Source of the DNA: a virus
Taxonomy: Duplodnaviria > Caudoviricetes
Strand: one strand, 5' to 3'
Length of the DNA: 64,000 nt
Virus record (IMG/VR): IMGVR_UViG_3300021431_004524
Location: 32,001-96,000 of that record
In this document: piece by piece, positions 3,220 to 20,520 of the stretch
Layout: each line of letters begins with the position of its first letter
Numbering within the stretch: position 1 is the first letter of the stretch
The notes under the pieces: model-generated
What the model was told of the DNA's origin: nothing
The model's database searches: none
Seen by the model: the letters and a program-made list of their open reading frames with translations, nothing else
Position numbers and translations under genes: made by a program

Positions 3220-5103
3220 TTAATCTTTCTTAAACCACTTATAGACAGCAGTTCCACAATCATAAATTCTATACCATTTTTGTTGTTTACAAAATTCACT
3301 TTCGCTCATATCTTCAGGACACCCATATTTTTTTACAAGGACACTTTTTCTATAATTGAATCTGTTTTTTCTTACATCACCAATTACGTAATAATAGTTT
3401 GGTTTAGAAAAATGACTAAATGTAAATCCAAGATTCTCATATAAGTTTCCCTTTGACCATCTTCTGTCTGCGTATGATACCACATTACTAGGATGATATT
3501 TTTCTATAAAATACTTAAATAATTTTGATGCCCCACCTATGACTTGTGTATTGATTTTATTACAAAATCTTAATAATTCATATTGCATCTTACCGTCACC
3601 AATAAAATGCCTTGATTTACCGAATGTCATTAATGATACTAATTCATCGCTATAATATAAGCCCAATTTAATTTGGCTTGGACACCATCCTTGTATGTGA
3701 TTTTTATTAAGAAAATCTGTACATTCTTTTGTCCCTATTTCTTTAACAATACACTTTCTTGCATATATTTTATTATCAGTTTTATTTAAAAGATTAGAAA
3801 TCATAGATTTCCATATCTCTTTTTTATAAATCCATTCGTCTTCAAATATATGAATTAATCTAATACCATGTTTTTCACATTCTAATGTTTTCCACAAATG
3901 ATAATCATTTGGTCTGTTATTTTCATTATGCCAGAATACACCGTCGAATTCAAAAGCCATTTTCATAGATGGAATGTAAATGTCGAGTTCTTTTCCATCA
4001 AGAATAGTTCTATCATTATTGTAAATGTCTGTATATCCAAGTGTTTTAATAAATTCAGCGATTTCCTTTTCTTTTGAAGATGAGTTACAATTATGATATG
4101 GACAGCCATGACCTTGTAAGAATGAATTAGCCTCAATAGAAAATGTACGTCCGCATTCATTACATTTTACTTCAACTTTCTTATCTGATGCTATATATTT
4201 ACTCAATACTGTGTATTTATTATCTCCATGTATTAGTTCAGCATCTTTTATAAACTGTTCTGTCGTTTTTGTTTTATTTTTAGCAATAAGGATTTTATTA
4301 CATTCCGGACATGGGTCTCCTTTTAAGGAATTATTAAAAAATGTGTTTGCTTTTCTTGTAAATTCATGACCGCATGTTCGACATGTACACTTCATTGGTT
4401 TCATTGTGCCGTCATATGATGTATAATCCACCATTATTGACGGATATAGTTCATTCATTCGTTTTTTAACTTCTTCTAAAGGTAAACGTTGTTTTGCACC
4501 GCTTTTTCTACCGGCGCATTTTTTACAGGAATAAACACCAATCAAAATGTTAGAAATCTTTTTAAAATCTTCTTTACCACAGGTTTTACATTTAACTGAA
4601 ACACGGTCTTTTTTTATATTTTTTTCTCCTTCAAATTGTTCAATATCAAAACCTTCAATTTTTTCTATCAATTCATTATATGAAATGGTTTCTTTTGGCA
4701 ATTCTTTACACCAACACCCGCCTGTTTTAGAACTTACAAAATCACAAGCGATTTTTACAAAAGTTTTACCACATAAATTACATTTAACCGTTATTTTACT
4801 ATGACTGTTTTCATATTCTTTATCTATATTAGGAAAAGAATACCGGTCACCAAATCGTTCCTTAGCCGTTTGAACAAAATTTTTCCATTTATTTTTAGAA
4901 TATGTTGCGGCATATTTTTTACCACACTCAGGACAACCTTGACCTTGTAAATGATTATGCGGTGTCTGCTGAAATCGATAACCACATTTTTTATGTGTCA
5001 TCCACATTTTAATTTTAGTTTTAATATAACTGTCTGGTTCATAGATATATTCATCCCCATGAACTTCACGTGCTTTATTTTCAAACCATTCGTAATTGTG
5101 CAT
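3220..5103 (-). CDS. Free-standing putative homing endonuclease: 5 Zn-ribbon repeats + PD-(D/E)xK (Vsr/DUF559-like) domain + C-terminal GNAT/Mom-like domain
   Basis: Repeated ~60-aa units ending CxxC; ELDIYIP...AFEFDGVFWH...LIHIFEDEW nuclease motif; C-terminal YELLRFC...VVSYADRRWS.GNLY. Lies between the polymerase halves. Confidence 0.75.
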   Translation of the reverse strand: MHNYEWFENKAREVHGDEYIYEPDSYIKTKIKMWMTHKKCGYRFQQTPHNHLQGQGCPECGKKYAATYSKNKWKNFVQTAKERFGDRYSFPNIDKEYENSHSKITVKCNLCGKTFVKIACDFVSSKTGGCWCKELPKETISYNELIEKIEGFDIEQFEGEKNIKKDRVSVKCKTCGKEDFKKISNILIGVYSCKKCAGRKSGAKQRLPLEEVKKRMNELYPSIMVDYTSYDGTMKPMKCTCRTCGHEFTRKANTFFNNSLKGDPCPECNKILIAKNKTKTTEQFIKDAELIHGDNKYTVLSKYIASDKKVEVKCNECGRTFSIEANSFLQGHGCPYHNCNSSSKEKEIAEFIKTLGYTDIYNNDRTILDGKELDIYIPSMKMAFEFDGVFWHNENNRPNDYHLWKTLECEKHGIRLIHIFEDEWIYKKEIWKSMISNLLNKTDNKIYARKCIVKEIGTKECTDFLNKNHIQGWCPSQIKLGLYYSDELVSLMTFGKSRHFIGDGKMQYELLRFCNKINTQVIGGASKLFKYFIEKYHPSNVVSYADRRWSKGNLYENLGFTFSHFSKPNYYYVIGDVRKNRFNYRKSVLVKKYGCPEDMSESEFCKQQKWYRIYDCGTAVYKWFKKD

Positions 5104-5176
5104 ATATATTTGTGTTATATTAATAAATATATACCAATGTGTAATTATTCATCAATATTTAATTCTTTTTAATGAC

Positions 5177-7681
5177 TTATATACAACTCCTTAAATATAA
5201 TATACCGGCAATTAATGTTTTGCATTCCGAAACTTTGGATAAATCCATTTTTGAAAGAAATTCTTTTTTACATTCGACTGTAGCATTAAGCAAATCAATT
5301 GGTATTGCATTAAGTCTACCGTTTGATAAAAGTTTTGAATATTTATCTATTCGTATTTCATCTATTACAATCTGATTATTTGAAATATTGTTATTATAAT
5401 ATTCTAATTTTGTATCAGAATTAATTTCAGATGGTTTGATTTTTTCTTGTTTTTCATTAAACAAACTATGGTCTTCAGTAACATCAATACTCATTTTAAC
5501 TTCATCGTCGCTAATTCTGTATATGGGTTTTGTGGTTTTATGACGGTAGATATAAGATGGTTCTACCCACCCGCTTCTGCAAAGCACTTTGAAATCTTTT
5601 TTTGAATAATCATATTCTCTACCTAAACCATCAAATTCTATTTTATCTTCATTAACAAGTTCTGAGATTGGTTTAATGTCAATTAATCCACTATTATTGT
5701 ATTTTATAAATAATGGAGTGTCCTCTGTAAATGAATCTCCCACTATTGGGGTATAACCAATATTTGTAAAATGAGAAATCATAAGACGAAGCATTTGTCG
5801 ACCAGTACAAGTTGTTTCCTCTGCACATTCAAGGTCAGACCAAGGAAATATGCCACCCGAACCATAAGACCCAAAAAAGCCGTTCCCCACAACCTTCAAA
5901 GGTAATTGCATCTTATCATTACGCATCTTAAGCATTTTGGCTGTTTGCTGCTTATCTTTCAGGTCGTTAAGCATTGCTTCTGTAAGTCTATCTATCTCTT
6001 CTTTAATACGTTTTGCTATTTCATCAGCCTCATCACCATATTTACCTTTAAGTTCTTTATAGTATTCACGTTGAGTAAGAATATAGTTAAGAAGAGCAGA
6101 CATCACATCCATAAGGTCAATTTCAGACCTAATCCCAAACGTGAGAATAATTGACGGATAAAGTGAATTATAGTCAAGTTTTACAATTCTATCAACATAG
6201 CCGACTTTAAGTAATCGGGACAAACCGCCAGTAAATGCTTTCTGTTGAATTAATTCAGGTACAGCCAAGTTATTTTCATAACTCCATGCAAGCATAATAT
6301 ATTTCCAAATAGCGGCAGTACCCATTGTACACATCTTTTCATAAGATACCGGAAGCATCTTACCTACAAGATAGTTAGACTGATTGTATCGTAATTCAAT
6401 TTTATCAGTTTCCCACAAGTCATCAAGAAGATAACGTTGTACTACATATCTACCGGTGACAAATTCAAATTTTTCATCATTTTCATTGTCAATGAGCATT
6501 TGTTTACCGTCTTCCTCATACCTATTATATCTTAATTGACCATCAGAAGTTGTTTTGGCAAGTAATTTTTCATCGACTTTGAACCAATGTCCGTTTTCAT
6601 CATTAAATGCATAGTCCGGATTTAAATCTTCCCATGTCGTGTTAATTATTTTACCCGGAACATAAACACGATTCTTCTTGGCAATATTTGAATATTTGGT
6701 TACATATTTCAATGTTGCCGATTTCATATTTGAATCGAGTGCTTGAGCACGTCTTACAGCAAACAATGAATCAGTAAGGTTTGTTCCCCACATTACAGTT
6801 GGGAAGTAATATTCCATTTCACCGCCAAGTTTAAGGACTTGCTGTTTCTTTTTCTTATATACACCCTTTCTGAAATATTTAAGAGTGAAATCACCCATTT
6901 TAATATCAGCAAGACTAAGACGGACATCAACAAAATTCCAGTCAAAGTTTTCTGTGTTATGCCCGGTTATGATATCCGGTTGTAATTCCTTGATTATTTC
7001 AAAAAATTCACATATTGCCGCTAATTCGTTCTTACGTTTTTCCTTACCTGTACCGGTAACTGTGATGATTTTCTCAAATCCTTTGTTTGTCCTAATACCA
7101 ATTTGGCTGATTGCATGGATTTGTGGGTCAAGTCCTTCCGTCTCCAAGTCCCATTCCATTCGTAGAAGGTCATCATAATCATCATATCCTTTAAACATTC
7201 TACGTCCGGTTTGTATCATATACTGTTCAACAGGAGAAACAGCAATATATTCCTTTAATCCGTAATTTTTATCACGTTGTCTAGGATATACCGGTCTTCC
7301 CGCTTTTTTGAAAAAATCCATGAATTTAGAATAGGTCATAGGAACTTTTGCATAGAACATAAGTTTATAACCATTCTTCATGCGTTCCGGTTCTGAACCG
7401 TCATCACGTGTAGTTCTTAATGCTTTTACACCGATTCCATATTCAGACAAGTTAAGTCTTATCTGTTTTCTGTCACCATTGAATAAGTTTTGTGCGGTTG
7501 TTTCTTTACACCATATAAAAGGGAAGAAATTGTCTCTTTTAATACGTTTTTTCCCTTGTTCGTCACGATAGATAATACTTACCTTATCATCATTGTATTC
7601 ACATTCTATCTTAATAATCCTTTCCATTGGGTCAGAACCAGATAAAAATGCATCAATCTGTTCTTTTGTAACTTTTGACAT
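5177..7681 (-). CDS. polB: Family B DNA polymerase, N-terminal half (3'-5' exonuclease + motifs A/B), fused to a C-terminal split-intein N fragment
   Basis: ExoI WDLETEG, ExoII GHNTENFD, motif A LDYNSLYPSII, motif B KVVGNGFFG; motif C breaks after IVGD, followed by intein block A SFTEDTP. Confidence 0.92.
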   Translation of the reverse strand: MSKVTKEQIDAFLSGSDPMERIIKIECEYNDDKVSIIYRDEQGKKRIKRDNFFPFIWCKETTAQNLFNGDRKQIRLNLSEYGIGVKALRTTRDDGSEPERMKNGYKLMFYAKVPMTYSKFMDFFKKAGRPVYPRQRDKNYGLKEYIAVSPVEQYMIQTGRRMFKGYDDYDDLLRMEWDLETEGLDPQIHAISQIGIRTNKGFEKIITVTGTGKEKRKNELAAICEFFEIIKELQPDIITGHNTENFDWNFVDVRLSLADIKMGDFTLKYFRKGVYKKKKQQVLKLGGEMEYYFPTVMWGTNLTDSLFAVRRAQALDSNMKSATLKYVTKYSNIAKKNRVYVPGKIINTTWEDLNPDYAFNDENGHWFKVDEKLLAKTTSDGQLRYNRYEEDGKQMLIDNENDEKFEFVTGRYVVQRYLLDDLWETDKIELRYNQSNYLVGKMLPVSYEKMCTMGTAAIWKYIMLAWSYENNLAVPELIQQKAFTGGLSRLLKVGYVDRIVKLDYNSLYPSIILTFGIRSEIDLMDVMSALLNYILTQREYYKELKGKYGDEADEIAKRIKEEIDRLTEAMLNDLKDKQQTAKMLKMRNDKMQLPLKVVGNGFFGSYGSGGIFPWSDLECAEETTCTGRQMLRLMISHFTNIGYTPIVGDSFTEDTPLFIKYNNSGLIDIKPISELVNEDKIEFDGLGREYDYSKKDFKVLCRSGWVEPSYIYRHKTTKPIYRISDDEVKMSIDVTEDHSLFNEKQEKIKPSEINSDTKLEYYNNNISNNQIVIDEIRIDKYSKLLSNGRLNAIPIDLLNATVECKKEFLSKMDLSKVSECKTLIAGILYLRSCI
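5180..5734 (-). mobile_element. Split intein N-fragment (IntN, 185 aa, Ser1)
   Basis: SFTEDTPLFIK (block A) ... DVTEDHSLF (block B TxxH). No C-terminal Asn block before the stop. Confidence 0.85.
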
Positions 7682-7753
7682 GATTATTTTTAATTAATTC
7701 TTATTTAATCCAGTTAAGCCACACCTACATGGGCATCATGGATATTTCTACGG

Positions 7754-7785
7754 CAAATATACTGTAAATATTCTATATTTCCAAG
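7754..7785 (-). promoter_or_regulatory. Bacteroidetes-type promoter for the polB N-half
   Basis: Minus strand CTTG-N20-TATATTTG upstream of ATG 7681. Confidence 0.6.
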
Positions 7786-7883
7786 TAATTAAATGTTAAA
7801 TTTATATAATATTTATAATTGATATGAATATTATATTAATGGTAAAGTAGCACAAAAGAGAATTGTAATACAGAAGAAATAAA

Positions 7884-8285
7884 CTATTTTTTTATCCCAC
7901 TGTCACTTATAGTAATAATCAAATCTTCGGCAATTGGTGCAATTAATTCGCCTTTTGGAAAAGTCATTCCATCAATTGAAATATTATCATCGAATTTAAT
8001 CTTAAATTGTCCTATATAGTTACCGGGGGTATCTGTATCACGTTTGTTCCAACGATATTCAATTACATAGGCTTCTTCACAACCAGTATCTTCTTTTTCC
8101 ACTACATATGCTTTTGCATTGGCAATTTTCTTAACGCCTGTTTCCATATTGGTCATCGTAAATGTAACTGTTGCTGCTTGAAGCGCAAGATAAGCCTTGC
8201 GGAAGTCGTTTCTTCCGTCGTTTATTACCTCCATACGTAAATTTGGAAGAGTTGAGTTTTTTGCTAAAAAGAAATATTGTGCCAT
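7884..8285 (-). CDS. Virion structural protein, BppU N-terminal-like
   Basis: LPNLRMEV...ATVTFTM...IEYRW..RDTDTPGNYIGQFKI...TFP pattern resembles baseplate upper protein N-domains. Confidence 0.45.
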   Translation of the reverse strand: MAQYFFLAKNSTLPNLRMEVINDGRNDFRKAYLALQAATVTFTMTNMETGVKKIANAKAYVVEKEDTGCEEAYVIEYRWNKRDTDTPGNYIGQFKIKFDDNISIDGMTFPKGELIAPIAEDLIITISDSGIKK

Positions 8286-8306
8286 ATCAAGTTAATTCTA
8301 TTTTAG

Positions 8307-8318
8307 ATAAATATTTAT
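8307..8318. promoter_or_regulatory. Palindromic double copy of the candidate late-promoter motif (ATAAATATTTAT)
   Basis: Perfect palindrome giving ATATTTAT on both strands between two divergent structural genes. Confidence 0.45.
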
Positions 8319-8341
8319 TAAAATAAAGATAATATGAAAAT

Positions 8342-9505
8342 ATGGCGTTAAGCAAGGAAAAAGAAAAACTTTTCAGACAAGTAAGGACACGTTTGGGTGT
8401 TAAGGTACGTTCAGTTGAACTTACCGATGACATGTTGTGTGATTTACTTGAGCAGGCCGTTGGTGATTATACGGAAAAAGTACAGAATTTCATTATAGAG
8501 TCAAACTGGGCACAGTTATACGGAAAGAATTTCAACAACGAAATAACAAATCAAGATATAGCATACGCCTTAACAACACGTTCTCTTGATATGATGAAGG
8601 ATTTCGGTGATTGGTTTTCAAAACAAGTTGGACTTCAGCAACACGGTAAATGGGAACTTAAAAAGGATTTCTTCAAAATAGAAGAAGGAAGACAAGTGTA
8701 TTTAGTTCCTGCCGGTAGGGAAATAAATAAGGTACTTTGGATTACCCCGCCAACCACGCACACTGCTTTATGGGCTAACTATGGTGGTTTTAGTACCGCT
8801 TTTGGCGGCGGAGTTCAAGGTCAGATGGGTCTTGGTGCTGCAAGCATTTTCGGTGGCATAGGTAGTGGCTATGGTATGGGTGTCGGTATGTGGGCATTAC
8901 CAATGGCTGATGTGGCTACTATGGCAGCAGATTTATCATTCAAGAACCAGATGATACGTAGTGACCTTGTTTATAAAGTAACCGCAGGTCCTGATGGTTC
9001 ACATTTAATACATCTTTTATCAACACCAGGGAGTAAACTCACATTTGGTGCAGGTGGTATGCCAGGTATGTATTCATTAAAAGACTGTTATGTGTGGTAT
9101 ACATACTATGATACTAATCCAAGTAATGCGGATGAATGTAGAAAGGATAATCCGTTTGTGATTCTTTCACCGGACCAAGTACCAATGGATGAAATTGACT
9201 ATGAATTGTTAAACACACCATCAAAGAATATTGTTCGTCAATTATTAGTTGGCTTGGCTGCTGAGACATTAGCATTGATACGTGGAAAATTCAGTGGTTC
9301 TATAAATATGATTAGCAGTCCGTTACAAATGGATTATGGCCAATTGATGACTCTTGGTAATCGTGAGAGAGATAATGCTATGAATGACTTGAAAGAACGT
9401 CTGTTACGTATGTCCCCTTATGAAATAATGAAGAAAAATGCAGATATGGCAGATGATTTAAGACGTTTACAAAAGAGTGTTCCATTAGGAATTTATCGAC
9501 ATTAA
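8342..9505 (+). CDS. Neck / head-tail adaptor protein (T4 gp13-like)
   Basis: N-terminal RLGVKVRSVELTDDMLCDLLEQA and C-terminal RGKFSG...LQMDYGQL...ERD resemble gp13. Confidence 0.75.
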   Translation: MALSKEKEKLFRQVRTRLGVKVRSVELTDDMLCDLLEQAVGDYTEKVQNFIIESNWAQLYGKNFNNEITNQDIAYALTTRSLDMMKDFGDWFSKQVGLQQHGKWELKKDFFKIEEGRQVYLVPAGREINKVLWITPPTTHTALWANYGGFSTAFGGGVQGQMGLGAASIFGGIGSGYGMGVGMWALPMADVATMAADLSFKNQMIRSDLVYKVTAGPDGSHLIHLLSTPGSKLTFGAGGMPGMYSLKDCYVWYTYYDTNPSNADECRKDNPFVILSPDQVPMDEIDYELLNTPSKNIVRQLLVGLAAETLALIRGKFSGSINMISSPLQMDYGQLMTLGNRERDNAMNDLKERLLRMSPYEIMKKNADMADDLRRLQKSVPLGIYRH

Positions 9506-9523
9506 TAGGAAATACAATTACTT

Positions 9524-10228
9524 ATGAGAATTATTAAATTAACAGAAAGTCAATACGATGATATTTGGAATGACCCATTGTTGGATGATAAAAACGTGTT
9601 TTCATATGAAACACTTAAAACAATGGATTGGAAGAATGGCATAGAGCTTGATGCCTATTGTCAGAGGTGTGGATTATCTAAAATAGGTGAAGGTATTGGT
9701 CGTAATGTATATGCAATTGATGATAATCTTGTAATAAAGGTTTCAAAGAAAAGCCATGACCAAAACGAAGGTGAGGTATTTGCTTATCGTAATATGTCAG
9801 ATGAATTGAAAGAAATGGTTCCGACTATCTTTGCGTATGATAAAAAGAATATCAGACCAATGTGGATTATTACAGAACGTGTACTTCCGGCAAGTTATGC
9901 GGATTTTCAGAAACTATTAGGTATCGATTTCGGTAGTTATGAAAGTCAGCAAGATATGAAGGATATGAAAAATGATTTGGAGACATATAAAAAGTATCCG
10001 AGCAATAAAGGAAACGGACTTAATCTGATGATGTTCCTTGAAGATTACGGAGATGGCGACATATCATTATATATGAACGATTTGAAACACAACGGATGGT
10101 TAAATACATTATGTAAGATGTTGAACCAAGGTTTCGTGTCTTATTGGGAACTTGAAAATATCGCAAATTGGGGGTTGGTTCATAGAAATGGTAAAACGAA
10201 TATCATAATTCTCGATACAGGTATGTGA
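9524..10228 (+). CDS. Protein-kinase-like fold protein
   Basis: Gly loop IGEGIGRNVY, VIKV lysine, alphaC NEGE, WIITERV hinge, N-containing catalytic loop (ELENIANWG), IILDTG. Confidence 0.6.
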   Translation: MRIIKLTESQYDDIWNDPLLDDKNVFSYETLKTMDWKNGIELDAYCQRCGLSKIGEGIGRNVYAIDDNLVIKVSKKSHDQNEGEVFAYRNMSDELKEMVPTIFAYDKKNIRPMWIITERVLPASYADFQKLLGIDFGSYESQQDMKDMKNDLETYKKYPSNKGNGLNLMMFLEDYGDGDISLYMNDLKHNGWLNTLCKMLNQGFVSYWELENIANWGLVHRNGKTNIIILDTGM

Positions 10229-10233
10229 ACTAA

Positions 10234-10662
10234 TTATACGAACCTCATTCTGATATCACGTTTTGCAAACATTGATTCAACATCGTCAATCTTATCACCA
10301 AAGTGTATTACAATTCGGCATGGTTCCGGATATTCCTCGGCATCATCCAAGTTCTCATATGCCAATGCTATAATTTGGTCTCTACAGTCTTGCATACTGT
10401 AACAGCAATTATCTTGTGCAAGGTCAAGTTTGATATATGTTTTAACCTCTTTAATATAATCATACATGTTGTCGGCAATCATCAAAGTTTCAAGTTTCTC
10501 ATTACAACTTGGTTTTTCAGACCATCCGTCAGCAAATGTGTCTTCAGTGTTTTCCGACAAAAGAAAATGATATATATTAAATCCATCACTGTCACGACCT
10601 ATATATAATATGAATACCACTTTTAAGTTTGAGGTATCAATGAAATCTAAATCTGAAATCAT
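10234..10662 (-). CDS. Hypothetical protein
   Basis: 142-aa ORF tightly coupled with the exonuclease and helicase genes. Confidence 0.7.
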   Translation of the reverse strand: MISDLDFIDTSNLKVVFILYIGRDSDGFNIYHFLLSENTEDTFADGWSEKPSCNEKLETLMIADNMYDYIKEVKTYIKLDLAQDNCCYSMQDCRDQIIALAYENLDDAEEYPEPCRIVIHFGDKIDDVESMFAKRDIRMRFV

Positions 10663-10663
10663 A

Positions 10664-11170: not shown

Positions 11171-11171
11171 A

Positions 11172-13181
11172 TTATTTATCTTTTTCAGCCTTTATTGTTT
11201 CATCCATTACAAGTCCCTTACGTAATACTTTTTCAAACATGTCTTGCGAAATTGAATCTGTAAACAATTGATATATACACAATGCATCCTCTTTCTGTGT
11301 TATACGGTATATACGGTCTTGCATCTGTCTGTTTGATGTTTCAAGCCAACTGTAACTGTTGAATATCATTATATGTGACGCAGTAAGGGTTAAGCCTACA
11401 CCGGCTGATTCAATTTGTCCGATAAACACCTTTATCTTAGGATTTTCCATAAATTCTTTTTCAGACTTATCCTTTTGTTTGGGTGTCATTTTACCGTCAT
11501 ATACGACTGCTTGCTTACCATAATATTCTTTAAAGGCATTGATTTCACTTGTAAAGTTACATGCAATGATGACTTTTTCACCATCCTCAATGTAATCATT
11601 TGCAAGTTCAATCGTATTAGGAACCATTTCCCTTGCAAGGAACTGTCTTACCAATGTTCCTTCGACCAATTGTCTGTATTCTTCATTTGTATTATCACCG
11701 TTTTCCTCTTGTGCTTCAACATATTCGTCCCACAATCTGTCATATTCTTCTTTCTGTCTATCATCAAGGTCATAATACCTTGTATCAAGACTTTTATTAA
11801 CCATTCCGGGAATATCAGATGAAAGTCTTCTTATATATACATGTTTGATTTTTTCCCTTAATTCATTAAGATTTGTAGAACCTTGTGGTATTATAAGACT
11901 ATCGGCATTTTCATCAATATATTTTACGGCATCTTTTCTTTTTTCGTTATTCATTGAAGCCCAACTTGTTCCATGTGTATATTCATATTTTGCAAGCCAT
12001 TTCTTCCATTCTCCGGGTTTATATAACTTTTTACCATCACAGTATGTGTTTATATAGTATTCATAGTCTTTTGTTACATCAGCATCAATAAGCCTAAGAA
12101 TGTAATATAAATTCATTGGTGTATTAGTCAAAGGTGTGCCGGTTAAAAGGAAAACATGTTTTATGTCTGATTTTCTTAAGAAATCATAAATAACTTTATA
12201 ACGGTTGGAAGTGTTGTTTGAAAGTTTCTGTGCTTCGTCAATAATTACACAGTCGAAGTTAGAGGTAAACAGCGGACTATTGAGTAAAGCCTTTTTTATA
12301 TCATTTTTCTTATTTGACTTTACTTGTTTATTTACCATCTTACCCGTCTTCTTATCTTTAATCATGACAGGCACTTTAAGTTTCTCAACTTCACCGTTCT
12401 TTCCTTGTATTTCCTCAATTTTATACTCATTTTCATACGGTATCTCATAGTAATTCTGAACAATATCATAGTTGATTATAGTGAATTTACCAGTTGAACC
12501 GTCCCATTTTGAACCTTTAATCACAACAATATCTTCAGGTTTTTCAAATAAAGAAACCTCACGTTTCCAAGTTGATTTCAAAGAGGCTGTCGTGATAACA
12601 AGGATTTTCTTGCAACCGCTTTCCAATGAACTTACGATTGCTTGAATCGTTTTTCCTAATCCCATTTGGTCTGCTAAGACACACTTTTTATTACCGACAA
12701 GGAATTTAATACCATCTTCCTGGTGTTGTTTTAGATTCATTCCATACTCAGAGAGTTTATTGTTATATGGAGTGAAATCTATGTCAATTGATTTATAATC
12801 AACAACGTGTATCGGTGTAAGTATTTGTTTCTTACTCAAAAACATTAATGCCGGTGGTATGGAATTTCTGTATTGTGCATAGCAATGATAAGAGTTTTTC
12901 ATTTCACCGATTATTGTAGTTATCCTTAATTTTTCCGGAGTAAAATCAATATCGTATTTCTCTTGAAGTTTTTCCCCAAGTTGTTTTGATATTTTAACTA
13001 TCTTATTGACGTTATCTGATATATAATCCTTGTTCTTGATTATGTATTCGGTTTCAAACCCATCTTCAGTCAAGATGAGTTTGTGCAGTTCATTCATTCT
13101 TTTGTAGTAAAGAATCTGATTGTTTGTTCCGCAGTATTCTTCAAGTATTCTATATGCTTTACTTATCGGGCTTTCTTTCAT
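11172..13181 (-). CDS. SNF2-family (SF2) helicase/annealing helicase
   Basis: LADQMGLGKT, IIDEAQ, LTGTPLTN, AGVGLTLT, QMQDRIYRI. Confidence 0.9.
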   Translation of the reverse strand: MKESPISKAYRILEEYCGTNNQILYYKRMNELHKLILTEDGFETEYIIKNKDYISDNVNKIVKISKQLGEKLQEKYDIDFTPEKLRITTIIGEMKNSYHCYAQYRNSIPPALMFLSKKQILTPIHVVDYKSIDIDFTPYNNKLSEYGMNLKQHQEDGIKFLVGNKKCVLADQMGLGKTIQAIVSSLESGCKKILVITTASLKSTWKREVSLFEKPEDIVVIKGSKWDGSTGKFTIINYDIVQNYYEIPYENEYKIEEIQGKNGEVEKLKVPVMIKDKKTGKMVNKQVKSNKKNDIKKALLNSPLFTSNFDCVIIDEAQKLSNNTSNRYKVIYDFLRKSDIKHVFLLTGTPLTNTPMNLYYILRLIDADVTKDYEYYINTYCDGKKLYKPGEWKKWLAKYEYTHGTSWASMNNEKRKDAVKYIDENADSLIIPQGSTNLNELREKIKHVYIRRLSSDIPGMVNKSLDTRYYDLDDRQKEEYDRLWDEYVEAQEENGDNTNEEYRQLVEGTLVRQFLAREMVPNTIELANDYIEDGEKVIIACNFTSEINAFKEYYGKQAVVYDGKMTPKQKDKSEKEFMENPKIKVFIGQIESAGVGLTLTASHIMIFNSYSWLETSNRQMQDRIYRITQKEDALCIYQLFTDSISQDMFEKVLRKGLVMDETIKAEKDK

Positions 13182-13204
13182 TATCAGTTTATACCTCTTA
13201 TATG

Positions 13205-13235
13205 CAAATATACTACATTTGTTTTAAACCACAAA
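13205..13235 (-). promoter_or_regulatory. Bacteroidetes-type promoter for the helicase-exonuclease operon
   Basis: Minus strand TTTG-N19-TATATTTG. Confidence 0.65.
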
Positions 13236-13262
13236 CTATTTATAGATATATTTTACTGGAAT

Positions 13263-13787
13263 ATGCCAAATAATTTACGTACACCGATTACAAGAAACGA
13301 TAAATTCTATTCAGAGGAAGACTTTGAATACGAAACAGACTTGCTCATGGAATATCTTGAGGAAGACTTAAATCAAACTGTGGTCGTGTATGAAGTTGAT
13401 AGACAGAAAACTAATATTAATGCCGTTTATAAAGAAGCAAAGGACGGACAAATAAGATTTAAAGCACCAAAGGAAATACCTTGTATGTATGAACTCAAAG
13501 ATGCTGATATTAAAACTTATGATTCAAAGACGAATACGGGTGTTTATGTGGTTAATGGTAATCTTATATTGCATGTAATGCCTAAAATCCTCGAAAAATA
13601 TAAATGTGATATAAGAAGAGGTGATTATATCGGCCTTCAAATTGATACCAACAGAATGGTCTATTTCTCCGTTGTAAATGACGGAAAGGTAAATACAGCC
13701 AACAGATATCATGTCGGGGCATATAAGATTGCATGGAGAGAAATTACATGTGCCCCCGTACCGGAAAATGAATTTAAAGGAGAGTAA
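13263..13787 (+). CDS. Neck / head-closure protein (T4 gp14-like); start reassigned to ATG 13263
   Basis: Located between gp13-like and gp15-like genes; has VYKE...F..P.EIP and RRGDYI motifs. The longer track start overlaps the helicase gene. Confidence 0.55.
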   Translation: MPNNLRTPITRNDKFYSEEDFEYETDLLMEYLEEDLNQTVVVYEVDRQKTNINAVYKEAKDGQIRFKAPKEIPCMYELKDADIKTYDSKTNTGVYVVNGNLILHVMPKILEKYKCDIRRGDYIGLQIDTNRMVYFSVVNDGKVNTANRYHVGAYKIAWREITCAPVPENEFKGE

Positions 13788-13789
13788 TA

Positions 13790-14926
13790 ATGCGTAAAGG
13801 ACAACCGAAAAAGAATATCGTACCCATAAGATTTAAAGATAAGTCATTTGGTAATGAAAGACGTAGGAATTTTCCAAGGGAGATTCTTTATAAGGAAACT
13901 GAATTGCCAAAACCTTTGAACTATGATGACATAGATTCTTCTTTTGAAGAATTTGTGAAGGAAGAAGTCGCAAAATTCAACAATACCATTTATCCGGTCT
14001 TTACCCTTTACAGCAATCAGAGATTCAGTGAGTATTCTCAGAATTGGGAACATACGGATGAGGATGGTAATCTATTACTCAATTTTGTTACAGTCAACAG
14101 AGATAGTAACCCAAAACCCGGTTCTAACCAAGGTGAACTGTGGAACATACCGGGAGACAGATACTATACAATGCTTATAAAGGATGTGCTTGATGACAAC
14201 GGAACGGAAAGTTATGAGATATATTCGATGAAACAGCCTTATGCAGTCGATTTGAGTTATCGTATAAATTTTATGACTTCAACCTATGAAAACATCAATG
14301 ATTTCAATAACCGTATTAATGAACTGTTTAAGGCAAGACAATGTTATATAAGACCTAATGGTCATTTTATACCTATGATTGTAGAGGAAATAAATGATGA
14401 AACGTCTTATAGTATAGACGAACGTAGATTCTTTCTTCAATCGATAGGAATTAAGGTGATGGCATACATCATCAATAAAGAGGATTTTAAAGTTGAGAAG
14501 AAACCAAAACATATAATGATGTTTATGGAAGGCGATGCAAAAAGACCTACTCCAACAGTCGATATTGATGAATATGAAGGAAATAACCCATTAGAATACC
14601 GTTCAGTTGACCTTACAGTTAATTTCAGTGAATATTATGAAAAGGTTGAATTTGATATTGATAGTGATTTAGTCGTTGAAACGACATCAAAGACAAATGT
14701 CAGAAGTATGAGACTCTTCGTTAATGATACTATGTACTACATTGACAAAGGATTTAAGTTGAAGAACGGTGATAATATTAAGATAAAAATAAATAAATAC
14801 GACATATCTGATAAGGCAACCATTGTTTTCAATGGATATAATCCGAATTATGTCTATAACACTGAAGTTACTCCAGAAAAGGTGAGTGATGAAGTCGTTA
14901 AGCATGAAGAGATAAATATTGATTAA
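13790..14926 (+). CDS. Tail terminator / sheath stabiliser (T4 gp15-like)
   Basis: QPYAVDLSYRINFMTSTYENINDFNNRINELF resembles the gp15 core; lies just upstream of the sheath gene. Confidence 0.55.
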   Translation: MRKGQPKKNIVPIRFKDKSFGNERRRNFPREILYKETELPKPLNYDDIDSSFEEFVKEEVAKFNNTIYPVFTLYSNQRFSEYSQNWEHTDEDGNLLLNFVTVNRDSNPKPGSNQGELWNIPGDRYYTMLIKDVLDDNGTESYEIYSMKQPYAVDLSYRINFMTSTYENINDFNNRINELFKARQCYIRPNGHFIPMIVEEINDETSYSIDERRFFLQSIGIKVMAYIINKEDFKVEKKPKHIMMFMEGDAKRPTPTVDIDEYEGNNPLEYRSVDLTVNFSEYYEKVEFDIDSDLVVETTSKTNVRSMRLFVNDTMYYIDKGFKLKNGDNIKIKINKYDISDKATIVFNGYNPNYVYNTEVTPEKVSDEVVKHEEINID

Positions 14927-14940
14927 TATTAATTCGTTGT

Positions 14941-15065
14941 TCTATCTTTATTTTGAGGTTATGACAGTCCCAGGACCTTGTCTACAATATGTCTACTACC
15001 AGAAATTTTTTATTTAATTAAAAATAAAAAATTAGTTTCTGGGACCTAGGTCCAAAAAGATAAGA
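14941..15065. repeat. Nested inverted repeats and a 12-bp palindrome in an intergenic region
   Basis: GTCCCAG (14967) / CTGGGAC (15039); CCAGAAA-TTTTTTATTT...AAATAAAAAA-TTTCTGG; palindrome GGACCTAGGTCC (15042-15053); TGTCTAC direct repeat twice. Confidence 0.6.
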
Positions 15066-15094
15066 AAATATATAAAAGAAAAGAAAAAGGTAAA

Positions 15095-15451
15095 ATGAAG
15101 AAGACTTCTCAGATTTACAAGTTCATTGAAGCGAACCGTTCATTGGATAAACTCATGTCTCAGAATTTGGAATATCCTATAAAGACTGCGTACAACATCG
15201 TTAAATCAAAGAAAGAGTTGGATGAAGCAATTGACTATGTTATGGAAAGGTTCGGTATCGTATGTGGCAATAATGTTGATTTTGAAAATATCTCAGATGA
15301 ACAGAACGTTATTTTAAACGGAATATTGTCACAAGAGATAGAGATAGATTTACCGGATATACCAATAAATGATATTGTTTCAAACGATAATGTAACTGTA
15401 TCAACCTCCGACATAGAAAATATAATGTTTCTCTTTGGAAAAAACGACTAA
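15095..15451 (+). CDS. Hypothetical phage protein (DUF1617-like pattern)
   Basis: 118 aa; YPIKTAYNI..SKKEL...EIEIDLPDI pattern. Confidence 0.55.
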   Translation: MKKTSQIYKFIEANRSLDKLMSQNLEYPIKTAYNIVKSKKELDEAIDYVMERFGIVCGNNVDFENISDEQNVILNGILSQEIEIDLPDIPINDIVSNDNVTVSTSDIENIMFLFGKND

Positions 15452-15528
15452 TAAATATCAGTTACAAGTACTTTTAGGTTTTGAAATGATATTTATTATA
15501 AAATAATTTGTTAAACAAAATAGAATAA

Positions 15529-18500
15529 ATGGCAAATACGAATAATAATAACGCAAGACAGACACACGTAAGTCCGGGTATATACACAAAGGAAACCGAC
15601 CTGACTTACGCATCAAAGTCTCTTGGTATTACTACTTTGGGTCTTGTTGGTGAAACCTTAAAAGGTCCCGCATTTCAGCCAATAACAATCGAAAATTGGA
15701 GACAGTACCAACAGTATTTCGGTGGAACAAGTACTGAGAAATACAGAGGAAGCCAATATCCTAAGTATGAATTACCTTATATTGCACAGTCGTATCTCAA
15801 ACAGTCAAATCAGCTTGAAGTATGCCGTGTTCTTGGTCTTTCTGGTGTTAATGCCGGACCTGCTTGGATTGTAACGGCTAAGAAAGAAAATGGAACATAT
15901 GATGATATGGTCGTGTTCGTACTTCGTTCAAGAGGTGAACACAAAAAGGCTGCTTTCTTACGCCATCCAACTGAGGAAGATAAGAAAAACGGAATTTGTA
16001 GTGATGTTTATGAGAATGACGGAATTGTGTATTATACCTCAGCAGTTTCACTTGATGTAAGCAAAACACTTGAATTCGGTAACGAATGTAGTCCAAGTCC
16101 AACGACCGAATCCGGCGACTTTAAAGTGAATGTTAATAACTACGGACGTTTTACGATTGTTGTAACCACTAATACAGGTGCTATAAAAAAATACTCCGTA
16201 TCACTTAATCCGGGTGAAAAGAACTATATAATTAATGTTCTTGGCACGAATCCTGAAATCGGTGAATCTGAGGTTTATGTTGAAGAACTTTATGATGTTG
16301 CATTGGAGCAATTAATTGAAAGAGGTGAAATTGATAGTATTAATCACATACCTACTGAATATAAACTCACATACATAGTACCTAAGTATGATGAAGTGGA
16401 TGATATTCTTACTTACGAGGAAGATTTGCTTACAAGAAAAGACGTTGGCAAACGTTTCCTTTACAGTTCATCACTTTCAAAAAATGGTAATGATGCTGCA
16501 ATTAATGTGCATGTATCTACTGATGATGGTAAGACTTGGACTGAAATGGCCGGTAGTGTAGGACATATCTATACTGTTATTCCATTCACAACTTCAGAGG
16601 GTACACGTAAATACTACTATGGTGAATACAATAGTACAGGTGATGGGTCGAATACGGAAATTCTTACTACTGATAGAACAGTTGACCCGACAAGTCATAT
16701 TTTTGATAATGCCGTTAAGGTTAGGTCTTATGAGTCGTTCTTTGTCCTTGAAGATGGTGATGTTAAACCGGTTACTCTTGATATGAACAACTATAAGGAA
16801 CAGTTCAGATATGCTTCGACACCTTGGATATTGTCAGAAATGAAGGGTGATGCTGAAAACATTGAGATTAACAGACTTTTCAGATTCCATACTATTTCTG
16901 ACGGTAATACTGCAAATACGGAAGTTAAGGTTTCTATTGAGAATATTGACCCTGAATATGGTACGTTCGATGTAATTGTACGTGATTTCTATGATACTGA
17001 TAACGCACCTGTTGTATATGAAAGATATAAGGGTGTTAATCTTATCCCTGGTGACAAGAACTATATCTCATTAAGAATCGGTTCATTCGATGAGGAATAT
17101 GAAAACATGTCTAATTACATTACTGTTGAGGTAAATGAAAATGACAAGACAAAGCAGTCAATTCCTGCCGGTTTCATGGGCTATCCGGTAAGAAATTATG
17201 AGAACGGTATTACAATACAGAATGTTTCAACAAAACCAAAAAAACCATTCTTCCAATATAATACTAATGTAGATGCCGACATAAGAATCAATAAACAGTA
17301 TTTTGGTATTTCTAATATTACCGGTATTGATGAGGATATCTTGAAGTATAAGGGCGTTGAGGCATATGATGAGGAACCAGATGGACTTACACCATGTTTC
17401 CACCTTGATTCACGTATTCTTGAAACTGCTTATAAGACGAAATACGACATTATACAAAATGTAACGATTGATGGCGTTGGCGGTTATGAATGGGTTACAG
17501 TAGGTGCTGAAAATCAGACTATGTTCGGTATCGAACCAAGAATCGGTGACTTAGAAACCATGATGGGCACAATCTATGAGGATAAGAGATACCGTAAGTT
17601 CACTCTTGCTTTCTGCGGTGGTTTCGACGGATGGGATTATTACCGTACCTCAAGAAGTAATTCAGATGACTTCAAATATACAAAATACAAGGGAAAGATT
17701 AATAGACAGAGTGGAATTGGTACAATGCTTTCTGTAATTAAAGACCCTGAGAATTATGGCTTCGGTGGAGGCGATAAGGTTTTGAACTCAGACTTCTATG
17801 CCTATCTTTCCGCTTACAGGCAGTTTGCTAATCCTAAGACAATTGACATTAACGTGTTTGCAACACCCGGTATCGATTATGTTAATCAGAATGCACTTGT
17901 CGGTGAAGTCATAACAATGATTGAAGAGGAACGTGCAGACTCAGTATATGTCGTTACGACACCTGATAAGCCTTATGGTGCAAGTGATGCTGAAGGTGAC
18001 ATGTTTACACCGTCTGATGCTGTTGATAATCTTGATGATTCTGAAATCGATAGTAATTACACTTGTTCATATTATCCTTGGTGTAAATACTTTGATGAAG
18101 AAAATAACAAATATATTTATCTGCCACCAACACGTGACGTAGTACGTAACTTTGCTTATACTGACAATACTAAGTATCCTTGGTTTGCAGCAGCAGGTTG
18201 GTATCGTGGTGAGATTGAGGACAAGGGTGTTAAGCCTAAGAAGTCTTTGAAACTCGGTGAACAGGACGTGCTCTATGCCGGACGTTTGAACTTCATTAAT
18301 ACTTTTGCAAAAGAAGGTATGAAGATTTGGGGTGATAAGAACATGCAGGTTCGTGAGAGTCAGATGAATAGGATTTCTAAGAGAAGATTGCTTATCCGTA
18401 TTAGAAAACTTTGCTCTATTGCTTGTATCGGTCTTATTTTCGACCCGAACGACAACACAACGAAGCAGTCATTTGAAAGTGCAATCACGCCAATCCTTGA

Positions 18501-18678
18501 CAATATCATGGCAAATCGTGGTATTACCGATTGGAGACTTGAAATCGATGACAGTCAAGAGGCACGTGACAGACTTGAGTTACCTGCTAAGATTTATATC
18601 AAACCACAGCCTAACCTTGAATATATAGATATTAATTTCGTTATTACACCACAAGGTACAAACTGGGACGATATTTAA
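15529..18678 (+). CDS. Contractile tail sheath protein
   Basis: SPGIYTKETD start, GETLKGPAF, YYPW, PWFAAAGWYRG, IWGDKN, FDPND and KPQPNLEYIDINFVIT sheath motifs. Confidence 0.95.
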   Translation: MANTNNNNARQTHVSPGIYTKETDLTYASKSLGITTLGLVGETLKGPAFQPITIENWRQYQQYFGGTSTEKYRGSQYPKYELPYIAQSYLKQSNQLEVCRVLGLSGVNAGPAWIVTAKKENGTYDDMVVFVLRSRGEHKKAAFLRHPTEEDKKNGICSDVYENDGIVYYTSAVSLDVSKTLEFGNECSPSPTTESGDFKVNVNNYGRFTIVVTTNTGAIKKYSVSLNPGEKNYIINVLGTNPEIGESEVYVEELYDVALEQLIERGEIDSINHIPTEYKLTYIVPKYDEVDDILTYEEDLLTRKDVGKRFLYSSSLSKNGNDAAINVHVSTDDGKTWTEMAGSVGHIYTVIPFTTSEGTRKYYYGEYNSTGDGSNTEILTTDRTVDPTSHIFDNAVKVRSYESFFVLEDGDVKPVTLDMNNYKEQFRYASTPWILSEMKGDAENIEINRLFRFHTISDGNTANTEVKVSIENIDPEYGTFDVIVRDFYDTDNAPVVYERYKGVNLIPGDKNYISLRIGSFDEEYENMSNYITVEVNENDKTKQSIPAGFMGYPVRNYENGITIQNVSTKPKKPFFQYNTNVDADIRINKQYFGISNITGIDEDILKYKGVEAYDEEPDGLTPCFHLDSRILETAYKTKYDIIQNVTIDGVGGYEWVTVGAENQTMFGIEPRIGDLETMMGTIYEDKRYRKFTLAFCGGFDGWDYYRTSRSNSDDFKYTKYKGKINRQSGIGTMLSVIKDPENYGFGGGDKVLNSDFYAYLSAYRQFANPKTIDINVFATPGIDYVNQNALVGEVITMIEEERADSVYVVTTPDKPYGASDAEGDMFTPSDAVDNLDDSEIDSNYTCSYYPWCKYFDEENNKYIYLPPTRDVVRNFAYTDNTKYPWFAAAGWYRGEIEDKGVKPKKSLKLGEQDVLYAGRLNFINTFAKEGMKIWGDKNMQVRESQMNRISKRRLLIRIRKLCSIACIGLIFDPNDNTTKQSFESAITPILDNIMANRGITDWRLEIDDSQEARDRLELPAKIYIKPQPNLEYIDINFVITPQGTNWDDI

Positions 18679-18700
18679 TATTAGTCATAGAAATAAAATT

Positions 18701-18734
18701 AAAGAGGGATTTCTTAAAGAAGTTCCTCTTTTTT
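18701..18734 (+). terminator. Intrinsic terminator after the sheath gene
   Basis: AAAGAGGGATTTCT-TAA-AGAAGTTCCTCTTT stem followed by a T tract. Confidence 0.75.
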
Positions 18735-18754
18735 AGTTATTTTAACAGAAAAAA

Positions 18755-18786
18755 TTTGGTTATTTGGAAATAAAGTAGTAAATTTG
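18755..18786 (+). promoter_or_regulatory. Bacteroidetes-type promoter for the second endonuclease
   Basis: TTTG-N20-TAAATTTG. Confidence 0.65.
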
Positions 18787-18846
18787 AATGTAATTTTTAA
18801 AAATCACGATTCGATTGCTATTATATCGCTGAATATTATTGCAAAT

Positions 18847-20520
18847 ATGAAAAAAATAAGGTCATTTGAGGAAACTGTTAAATTGTTCAGAGAAGTTCAC
18901 GGTTACAAATTTGAATATTATCCAGAGACATATCACGGTAGTGCATATAAGATGAAAATGCATTGTAATATTTGTGGATGTGATTTTGAACAAACCCCTA
19001 ATAAACATTTATTAGGAAGAGGATGTCCTGAATGTGGCGGGACTAAAGTTTGGGACAAAGATAAATTCGTTAAAGAAACTGAGAAAATATTTCCAAAACA
19101 ATTTTCTTTTGATGAAACAAATTATGTTAACCAAAGGACACCTCTTATTGTGACTTGTAAAAAACATGGAAATATTGAAGTTATTCCTAAAACATTTCTG
19201 AAAGGTTGTGGGTGTCCATATTGTAAAGAAGAAAAAAATAAAAAATTTGCTGATAGTTTTGAAGAGCGTGCAAGAAAAATACATCCTGTGGAGGAATGTT
19301 TGGATTACGGTGAAAGTTGTTATGTAAATATACATACACCATTGAAGATAATATGTCATAAGAAAGATGAATATGGTGTGGAACATGGTGAGTTTTGGCA
19401 AACGCCAGCACATCACCTAAGTGGTCAAGGATGTCCTAAATGTAATGGCAATTTCAAAATGACTGGTAAGGAATTTGAAATAAAATCTAAGAAAATTCAT
19501 CAAGATAAATTTACATATTTTACTGAAAAATATAATGGTTATAATGAAAATGTGGAGATTAAATGCAATACATGTGGTAAAATATTTTTTCAAACTCCAC
19601 ACAATCATTTAAAAGGTGAAGGTTGTCCATATTGTGTTGGTAATATATCTAAACCGGAAACCGATATTGCTGAATTTATTTCACAATATACATATATAGA
19701 TACAAATAATAGAAAAATATTAGACAATTCAAAGGAAATAGATATTTTAATTCCTGACAAGAAAATTGCATTTGAATATGATGGGTTGGTGTGGCATTCA
19801 GAAAAATTCGGAAAAGACCGAAATTACCATCTTAATAAAACCGAAGAATGTAAAAATAAAGGAATAAAATTATATCATATATTTGAAGATGAATGGGTAT
19901 TTAACAGAGAAATTGTAGAGTCAAGAATAAAGAATATACTTGGTGTAACAGAAAATAAAATATATGCAAGAAAATGCAGTATAAAAGAAATAAGTGATAA
20001 TGATGCAGAAATATTTTTGAATAATAATCATATACAAGGGTATTGTAAGTCAAAATATAGATACGGTTTGTTTTATAATAATGAATTAGTGTCTGTTATG
20101 ACATTTGGGCATCTTCGTAAGAATTTAGGCAGTATAGGAAATAACGACGAATATGAACTACTTAGATTCTGCAATAAGCTTGATACTACTGTAACAGGCG
20201 GTGCTTCTAGACTACTTAAGTGTTTTATAAACAAAGTACATCCAAACAGAATTATAAGTTATGCTGATAAAAGATGGAGTAATGGTAATCTTTATGAAAA
20301 GTTAGGATTTAAACATGTAAAGGATAGTCAACCTGGATATTTCTATATTATAGGACAACGCAGAGAAAATAGATTTAAATATAGAAAGGATAAACTTGTT
20401 AAAGAAGGATATGACAAAAATAAAACCGAACATGAGATAATGATTGAACGTGGAATATATAGAATATATGATTGTGGAATGATGGTTTTTGAGATGATAA
20501 TAAATAATCCCGATGAATAA
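18847..20520 (+). CDS. Putative homing endonuclease, paralog of 3220-5103 (4 Zn-ribbon repeats + PD-(D/E)xK + GNAT/Mom-like); start at ATG 18847
   Basis: GCPxC repeats; EIDILIP..KIAFEYDGLVWH; HIFEDEW; YELLRFCNK...ISYADKRWS.GNLY; RIYDCG. Confidence 0.75.
   Translation: MKKIRSFEETVKLFREVHGYKFEYYPETYHGSAYKMKMHCNICGCDFEQTPNKHLLGRGCPECGGTKVWDKDKFVKETEKIFPKQFSFDETNYVNQRTPLIVTCKKHGNIEVIPKTFLKGCGCPYCKEEKNKKFADSFEERARKIHPVEECLDYGESCYVNIHTPLKIICHKKDEYGVEHGEFWQTPAHHLSGQGCPKCNGNFKMTGKEFEIKSKKIHQDKFTYFTEKYNGYNENVEIKCNTCGKIFFQTPHNHLKGEGCPYCVGNISKPETDIAEFISQYTYIDTNNRKILDNSKEIDILIPDKKIAFEYDGLVWHSEKFGKDRNYHLNKTEECKNKGIKLYHIFEDEWVFNREIVESRIKNILGVTENKIYARKCSIKEISDNDAEIFLNNNHIQGYCKSKYRYGLFYNNELVSVMTFGHLRKNLGSIGNNDEYELLRFCNKLDTTVTGGASRLLKCFINKVHPNRIISYADKRWSNGNLYEKLGFKHVKDSQPGYFYIIGQRRENRFKYRKDKLVKEGYDKNKTEHEIMIERGIYRIYDCGMMVFEMIINNPDE

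Follow-up and report, generated by a model that had tools for sequence, protein, structure and literature searches.

Two Probable Hef-Type Homing Endonuclease Genes With Zinc-Finger Arrays and Mom-Like Domains in an Uncultured Jumbo Phage

Introduction

Hef, reportedly short for homing endonuclease-like function, is said to have been described by Sandegren in 2005 from the T-even-like phage U5, and the two open reading frames (ORFs) treated here, ORF1 and ORF2, are new members of this known and extremely abundant family. Both lie in a window of 64,000 nucleotides (nt), which comprises bases 32001-96000 of the 235.6-kb IMG/VR virus record IMGVR_UViG_3300021431_004524 (Caudoviricetes; guanine-cytosine (GC) content of the whole record 0.346); a DNA-level search of the record against isolated phages returned no close match. 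Positions are counted from the first base of the window. Secondary sources state that Hef of phage U5 cuts near its own locus (PMC3322345, PMC2988022), and Hef-like genes are described as free-standing and as sitting beside conserved genes, including the tail tube gene in LIMEstone1 (PMC2988022, PMC3322345, PMC3296691). ORF1 and ORF2 resemble Hef of U5 and the Hef-like genes of Campylobacter, Acinetobacter, Dickeya (F-LimIII and F-LimVIII), RaK2 and AR9/PBS1 phages in a module of about 290 amino acids (aa), made up of a nuclease and a C-terminal domain, with 33-47% identity and assignment to the same PHROG; the highest identity found for this module, 58%, is to an uncultured phage record. They differ from known Hef proteins in their finger arrays, and one of the two copies lies inside a split intein.

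Each remaining part of the two proteins also has a described counterpart. Hef-type proteins have been assigned to the EDxHD, Vsr-like family of nucleases (Taylor 2011, PMC3239194), and ORF1 and ORF2 share with I-Bth0305I the nuclease fold, the catalytic positions and an order of parts in which an N-terminal DNA-binding region precedes the nuclease. Unlike them, that enzyme is intron-encoded, uses NUMOD/helix-turn-helix elements and has neither a Mom-like domain nor zinc-finger repeats (PMC3239194). Tandem arrays of CapR, DUF723 and DUF4379 fingers are found in homing endonucleases of the T5orf172 (GIY-YIG-like) kind, where the fingers have been likened to “beads on a string” that undergo repeat-mediated deletion, duplication and domain swapping, and where modular arrays have been argued to speed retargeting (Barth 2023, PMC10448857). 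Changes of these kinds are seen here too, but only the finger array is common to the two groups, as the nuclease studied here is Vsr-like and carries an added Mom-like domain. For the setting of ORF1 the parallel is provided by the “fractured genes” (Dassa 2009, PMC2677866), in which a free-standing Vsr-like homing endonuclease gene separates the two parts of a split intein. ORF1 lies in such an arrangement, in a replication gene and at a catalytic motif; the host gene and the lineage differ from those cases, and some relatives of the present locus have two tandem Hef genes in the gap. Domains of the Mom-type GNAT fold fused to restriction-fold nucleases are known from jumbo phages, and the same fusion, with the key residues of Mom aligned, is present in both ORFs. 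These Mom-restriction endonuclease (REase) fusions have been read as restriction-modification enzymes rather than homing endonucleases (Iyer 2021, PMC7824862), and the available part of that paper makes no mention of finger arrays. Mom of phage Mu (8bv8), unlike ORF1 and ORF2, stands alone. To engineered zinc-finger nucleases and TALENs there is a resemblance in manner of working only, that of small tandem DNA-binding modules joined to a nuclease: the module here is a treble clef of about 57 aa, not a C2H2 finger or a TALE repeat, and the nuclease is not FokI.

Each part of the system is known and has appeared in print on its own (Sandegren 2005; Dassa 2009; Taylor 2011; Iyer 2021; Barth 2023). 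The initial annotation of the window, which described the two ORFs as a possible family of modular zinc-finger nucleases, overlooked that both the family (Hef) and the idea of repeated fingers (Barth 2023) were already in print, and it left the C-terminal domain unnamed, missing its Mom-like character.

Architecture and Family Membership

ORF1 (627 aa) and ORF2 (557 aa, counted from the ATG) are open throughout and share one layout, consisting, from the N-terminus, of a tandem zinc-finger array, a Vsr-like nuclease and a Mom-like domain. Their features are as follows.

3220-5103, minus strand: ORF1, predicted Hef-type homing endonuclease gene (phrog_559, E 1.1e-153; phrog_3339, E 1.4e-117; GC 0.296, flanks 0.335-0.36)
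4081-5103, minus strand: ORF1 zinc-finger array, five CapR/DUF4379-type repeats, aa 1-341 (repeat model; DUF4379, 38.6 bits)
3784-4080, minus strand: ORF1 Vsr-like (EDxHD) nuclease domain, aa 342-440 (profile and Foldseek matches to 3r3p)
3223-3783, minus strand: ORF1 Mom-like GNAT domain, aa 441-627 (Foldseek, 8bv8; hhalign to Mu Mom)
18847-20520, plus strand: ORF2, predicted free-standing Hef-type homing endonuclease gene (phrog_559, E 3.5e-141; phrog_1384, E 1.5e-10; GC 0.290, flanks 0.378 and 0.413)
18847-19647, plus strand: ORF2 zinc-finger array, four repeats, aa 1-267 (repeat model; DUF4379, 48.5 bits; CapR, 27.0 bits)
19648-20517, plus strand: ORF2 nuclease and Mom-like module, 290 aa, aa 268-557 (module search of phage records)

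The five and four tandem units named in the initial annotation were recovered, and the nuclease and C-terminal domains of the two paralogs are as alike as it had stated (54.6 and 53.2% identity, respectively, against 15-47% between repeats). In the sense of a tandem zinc-finger array joined to a nuclease, its term “modular zinc-finger nuclease” also holds for both ORFs. PHROG 559 and 3339 match the two proteins over their full length (E 1e-153 for ORF1 and 1e-141 for ORF2), and relatives were found by tblastn in 1046 phage records, the best of them annotated as Hef, Hef-like or homing endonuclease (Campylobacter NCTC12673 Hef73, AR9/PBS1). Compared over their full length, the proteins are only 30-36% identical to those of any isolated phage. 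The 290-aa nuclease and Mom-like module occurs in 418 phage records, in 401 of them at a coverage of at least 80%, and these records include Acinetobacter phage 133, RaK2 (“hef”), Dickeya F-LimIII, Lak megaphages and genes annotated as Hef-like. The abundance of the family is evident from a HMMER scan, which returned 46,179 cluster representatives at E ≤0.001 and 14,353 at E ≤1e-30.

Both ORFs are very probably Hef-type homing endonuclease genes, that is, selfish genes that would spread by cutting related genomes that lack them. Their GC content of 0.29-0.30, against 0.34-0.41 in the neighboring genes, was counted as a sign of a mobile element.

Other finger-array genes were observed in the same virus record, outside the window. 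C1:1036-3054 (locus L008) encodes a third paralogue, a composite in which two nuclease modules are combined: in order, it has four fingers, a different nuclease module with the motif VDFYL...IIIECQGEQH (phrog_9084-like), a decayed Hef nuclease motif and a Mom-like domain that has Gly at the position of Mom S124. C1:209155-210282 (locus L004) encodes four very regular repeats (169-nt repeats, 60-78% identical as DNA) and a nuclease of the phrog_9084/7140 type, without a Mom-like domain, which shows one type of array paired with another nuclease inside a single genome.

The Nuclease Domain

A single-protein sequence search of the PDB returned nothing useful, and a family profile was needed to reach the catalytic domain of I-Bth0305I (3r3p, E 2.6e-4). 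The same structure was matched by Foldseek from the model of ORF1 (3r3p_B, TM 0.78 over 104 columns). D196, N208 and H213 of I-Bth0305I correspond to D374, D387 and H392 of ORF1, while the equivalent of D222 in the profile alignment is H402 and not Asp. Both ORFs have E345, D374, E385, H392, H402 and K405, each of which is shared by 347-369 of 374 relatives; for D374, E385, H392 and K405 the count is 366-369. The PHROG label of HNH endonuclease was rejected, since no domain of that type was detected and both profile and fold mark the nuclease as Vsr-like. A Pfam scan of both ORFs gave no match to T5orf172, MUG113 or GIY-YIG.

Homing endonucleases can lose their nuclease function and be domesticated as DNA-binding regulators, as with CapR in the PLE satellite (PMC8096241), and the decayed Hef nuclease motif of the third copy (C1:1036-3054) would be in keeping with such a fate. 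However, ORF1 and ORF2 retain every one of the conserved nuclease residues listed above, and it is very improbable that these two are nuclease-dead regulators.

The Insertion Sites

The initial annotation placed the two ORFs in or beside polB and the sheath and tube genes, and the neighboring genes agree with this: pieces of polB flank ORF1, and the sheath and tube genes flank ORF2.

5177-7681, minus strand: N-terminal part of polB (Pfam DNA_pol_B and exo domains; sequence reading)
1557-3161, minus strand: C-terminal part of polB (sequence reading)
15529-18678, plus strand: tail sheath gene, 5' neighbor of ORF2 (phrog_23, E 1.5e-45)
20565-21053, minus strand: tail tube gene, convergent with ORF2 (phrog_4542, E 2.6e-27; Pfam T4 gp19)

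To judge from the sequence, the setting of ORF1 is a fractured gene, the endonuclease gene standing in the gap of a split intein. The N-terminal part of polB consists of extein aa 1-649, ending in IVGD (5735-7681), and a 185-aa N-intein (5180-5734) that starts with SFTEDTP and contains TEDH; the C-terminal part consists of a 36-aa C-intein (3054-3161; VVYDISLDG...VISN) and the extein from TDGFNF onward. Given the junctions IVGD/SFTEDTP and VISN/TDGFNF and the intein motifs between them, splicing would therefore rebuild motif C, and the conceptual spliced polB can be aligned, from residue 4 to residue 1133, to an uninterrupted polB of 1170 aa from a related locus (L036). Relatives display three allelic states at motif C, namely intein-less genes (L036 and L070), a contiguous LAGLIDADG intein (L065 and L058), and a split intein that holds either a single Hef gene (L013 and L020) or two in tandem (L014, L015, L016, L024, and L026). 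The three ORF1 orthologues with known context (L013, L014, and L015) all adjoin the C-half of polB. The tail of the N-intein in the window resembles a decayed LAGLIDADG remnant.

Genomic context was surveyed for 105 nuclease and Mom-like modules in 80 related IMG/VR loci. Of these modules, 66 lie within 2.5 kb of a tube or sheath gene and 17 are at polB, and the sheath-tube site is occupied by such genes in most of the related IMG/VR loci. In a tree of the modules, those of like genomic context tend to group together (24 changes; shuffles, 35.2), yet context has switched many times. A group I intron around ORF1 or ORF2 was rejected, with no Rfam match in positions 1-24000.

At the site of ORF2, a terminator-like hairpin (18701-18731) stands 3' of the sheath gene, and a second hairpin (20497-20541) is found at the 3' end of ORF2, ahead of the convergent tube gene. 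Some relatives have a DUF7487 N-terminal domain in place of the fingers on the same nuclease and Mom-like core (L028:1661-3382, L017:1632-3185, L061:429-2051, and L053:3626-5401). These DUF7487 forms often lie across the tube gene from finger forms, which leaves the tube gene with a Hef gene on either side, as in L028. The sheath and tube genes face each other in the window, L031 and L039 and are co-directional in most relatives (for example, L051 and L041), where the other strand carries the endonuclease gene; the arrangement points to an inversion at the sheath-tube site.

For a Hef-type homing endonuclease, the following course of events is proposed. The N-terminal string of independently folded treble-clef fingers would keep the enzyme bound to a DNA site that is long and asymmetric, the Vsr-like (EDxHD) nuclease would make the break, and the Mom-like GNAT domain would most plausibly engage or modify adenine at the site. 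After co-infection, repair of the break would copy the gene together with flanking markers into the cut genome. ORF1 may have inserted itself into a LAGLIDADG intein of polB motif C, within the endonuclease region, and thereby split the intein, so that the polymerase would have to be rebuilt by trans-splicing.

The Zinc-Finger Repeats

A hidden Markov model of the repeat (repeat HMM), seeded on the nine units proposed initially and iterated on 269 relatives, resolved units of about 57 aa. They lie at aa 5-62, 74-134, 141-198, 210-270 and 282-341 of ORF1 (per-domain E 1e-22 to 5e-7) and at aa 8-65, 72-128, 136-201 and 208-265 of ORF2 (per-domain E 2e-17 to 6e-20). The Pfam model DUF4379, described as a “probable treble clef zinc finger,” exceeds its curated cut-off of 24.5 bits with both proteins (38.6 for ORF1 and 48.5 for ORF2), the CapR homology domain passes its cut-off of 24.2 with ORF2 (27.0 bits) and reaches only 13.8 with ORF1, and DUF723 gives a weaker match to the repeat units. 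Across the family, the consensus of the 57-aa unit is EEFIEKAKEIHGDKYDYSKVEYKNSKTKVTIICPKHGEFEQTPNSHLNGKGCPKCSK. The zinc ligands of each repeat follow the pattern C/H-x2-C/H, 15-22 residues and C-x2-C, and all nine local repeats have four ligands, with variants in ORF1 in the form of C-x-C in repeat 2 and C-x2-H in repeat 5. Over 1262 repeats, the ligand columns 33, 36, 52 and 55 are occupied by C (97%), H/C (97%), C (99%) and C (100%), respectively.

The segment ahead of the second knuckle, which reads F-x-Q-x-P-x-x-H-L-x-G-x-G-C-P-x-C in the same 1262 repeats, had been termed hypervariable. It does hold the least conserved columns of the unit (40, 42, 44, 45, 48 and 50, at 0.7-1.0 bit), but the term is overstated. 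The variable positions within columns 40-50 are interleaved with the conserved Q, P, H, L and G of the scaffold, and four of the local units, namely repeat 1 of ORF1 and three of the four repeats of ORF2, match the family consensus QTPxxHLxGxGCPxC. The segments QTPHNHLQ, QTPNKHLL, QTPAHHLS and QTPHNHLK differ from one another at three positions only.

Structure was modeled with AlphaFold2 (AF2) for ORF1 (pLDDT 93.8, pTM 0.58, input of 120 sequences) and for a single repeat (ORF2 repeat 4, 19456-19662; pLDDT 85, input of 143 sequences). In both models the predicted repeat is composed of a helix, three strands, a short helix that corresponds to the pre-knuckle segment and a further helix that runs from the second knuckle. 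The low pTM of the ORF1 model fits beads on a string. We know of no DNA-bound structure of this ~57-aa treble-clef finger, and of no per-repeat recognition code for fingers of its kind. A structural search with one repeat returned no DNA-binding or DNA-bound analogue, and the sole consistent match, 6sga_Fd, a mitoribosome assembly factor of Trypanosoma (Z 4.5, Foldseek E 0.08), is too weak to carry an interpretation. The only consistent structural neighbors of the repeat are mitoribosome assembly factors of Trypanosoma and Leishmania (6sga_Fd, 21-32% identity; with the whole array, also 6yxx_E2), and the comparison of models hints that the same finger may occur in kinetoplastid RNA-binding proteins. 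A recent intragenic duplication in ORF1 or ORF2 was rejected, as the repeats at the DNA level are merely 15-24 nt long and located at the knuckles.

Remodeling of the Array and Choice of Target

Among the 269 relatives, proteins carry from 1 to 14 repeats, and protein length rises with repeat number (r = 0.87). A direct view of remodeling is provided by two genes, L028:3983-6199 with seven repeats and L063:3983-5635 with four, which occupy the same tube-sheath site between flanks that are 86-88% identical. In an alignment inspected by eye, their first three repeats and their nuclease and Mom-like modules are ~90-95% identical, and a cassette of 895 nt in the former (repeats 4-7) is exchanged for one of 331 nt in the latter (one unrelated repeat), while the gene stayed at the same site. 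This swap shows that repeat shuffling, as put forward in the initial annotation, is real. The 169-nt repeats of C1:209155-210282 and the position of the three ORF1 orthologues beside the C-half of polB also count in favor of the initial proposal.

Conservation can be followed repeat by repeat in the orthologues of ORF1. Five repeat hits were obtained in 28 of 31 aligned orthologues, all five repeats being kept in those 28 (49-76% identity), and in columns 41-50 each repeat is strongly conserved across the orthologues, with residues that differ from one repeat to another. In repeat 1, for example, Q41, N45 and H46 reach 4.3, 3.9 and 4.1 bits, respectively, against 1.0-1.7 bits between repeats. 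By comparison, the tube-sheath site is host to proteins with 1-7 repeats that lack positional orthology, as well as to DUF7487 forms that have no repeats at all. Pairing the repeats of relatives by position with those of ORF1 and ORF2 fails beyond close orthologues, and most repeats resemble the consensus-like repeat 3 of ORF2. Weighed together, the range of array lengths, the cassette swap and the repeat-wise conservation, set against the variety of proteins at a shared site, indicate that modularity and shuffling of the array are real, while a recognition code is a proposal only.

A further claim of the initial annotation, that repeat number and the short variable helix set the DNA target, finds no support in these comparisons. 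Proteins with 1-7 repeats and DUF7487 proteins share the tube-sheath site, and in I-Bth0305I, the one characterized relative, specificity derives mainly from the nuclease dimer on the central 14 bp, with flanking contacts that are largely non-specific (PMC3239194). The same facts, along with the constancy of the L028/L063 site despite a four-for-one exchange of repeats and the lack of positional orthology beyond close relatives, would suit an array that serves as a low-specificity anchor or spacer. Target choice would then fall mainly to the nuclease, perhaps with the Mom-like core, and gain or loss of repeats would be nearly neutral. Such an anchor is a genuine possibility, though on the whole we lean away from it, given that inter-knuckle residues are conserved in each repeat of the 28 ORF1 orthologues and are distinct between repeats, and that five repeats are retained in 28 of 31. 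A single CapR finger domain, the one established case for fingers of this kind, moreover, binds DNA specifically, and the binding is lost on Cys-to-Ser changes (Netter 2021, PMC8096241).

The Mom-Like Domain

The C-terminal domain is matched in ORF2 by phrog_1384, annotated as “Mom-like DNA modification protein” (E 1.5e-10). With the whole ORF1 model as query, Foldseek ranked Mu Mom first (8bv8_A, E 1.4e-6, TM 0.58 over 191 columns), above ordinary GNATs, and helices 581-607, between two strands of the model, take the place of the DNA-binding insertion of Mom. In the hhalign alignment, the proposed active-site residues R111, S124, D149, R151 and Y159 of Mu Mom fall on R512, S526, D546, R548 and Y555 (ORF1 numbering). 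All five are found in both ORFs and are kept in 361, 273, 356, 354 and 356 of 374 relatives, respectively. In Mu Mom itself, alanine at R111, S124, D149 or R151 abolishes or greatly lowers activity, and Y159A lowers it drastically (PMC13219725). Given the presence of these residues in both ORFs and their conservation in most relatives, the Mom-type active site looks, in the alignment, apparently intact and under selection.

Several points weigh against reading the two ORFs as homing endonucleases with a domain of this type. The Pfam Mom model PF25680 scores 19.8 and 23.4 bits, below its curated cut-off of 27.1, and the domain is therefore termed Mom-like rather than counted as a member of the Pfam family. 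The hhalign match to Mu Mom, with an E of 1.9e-4, has a probability of only 48%, and the equivalent of Mom S124 is replaced in 27% of relatives. Finally, a plain homing model leaves the Mom-like domain unexplained. In the literature searched, no paper linking Mom-like domains with homing endonucleases or the Hef C-terminus was found among the matches listed, which is weak evidence of absence.

Alternatively, each protein could be a single-chain conflict enzyme akin to restriction-modification systems, in which the Mom-like domain marks the adenines of the carrier and the nuclease attacks unmodified DNA of the host or of a superinfecting phage, with homing as a secondary trait; the two roles are compatible. 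The aligned residues of the proposed Mu Mom active site, four of them critical by mutagenesis and the set kept in 273-361 of 374 relatives, are in line with such an enzyme, as is the rank of Mom 8bv8 as the best structural match. The virus record holds three gene copies with a Mom-like domain and, in addition, the fourth finger-array nuclease gene without one, and a role of this kind has been predicted for the Mom-REase fusions of jumbo phages (PMC7824862). Two lines of evidence argue the other way. The split-intein site and the shared sites between genes recur in many phages with presence/absence alleles, which is the signature of homing, and the length of the finger array points to a rarely occurring site rather than genome-wide restriction. 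Restriction-modification as the primary function is unlikely, and Hef-type homing endonucleases continue to be the preferred reading of both ORFs.

Implications

A more speculative idea joins the functions of all three domains. Hef-type enzymes might be finger-guided and either cut or mark, such that an N6 adenine mark, set by the Mom-type active site on or close to the target that the array selects, immunizes the carrier while unmarked alleles are cut, and columns 40, 42, 44, 45, 48 and 50 of the repeats read sub-sites in a manner that is partly decodable. We consider this improbable as it stands, but if true, it would make these proteins single-chain, site-specific homing elements that resemble restriction-modification systems.

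The result in its present form is the annotation of two genes, very probably selfish, in an uncultured jumbo phage. It is also evident that one very abundant protein family spans three literatures, those on Hef homing endonucleases, on repeated zinc fingers of the CapR type and on Mom-REase fusions. The family poses two questions, namely how DNA is read by a treble-clef repeat of about 57 aa and why a homing endonuclease keeps an apparently intact Mom-type site. If the arrays were decodable, or if the Mom-like domain were a targeted adenine modifier, natural pairs such as L028/L063 would be ready-made experiments on specificity, and the family would be of interest both to genome engineering and to the study of conflicts between phages.

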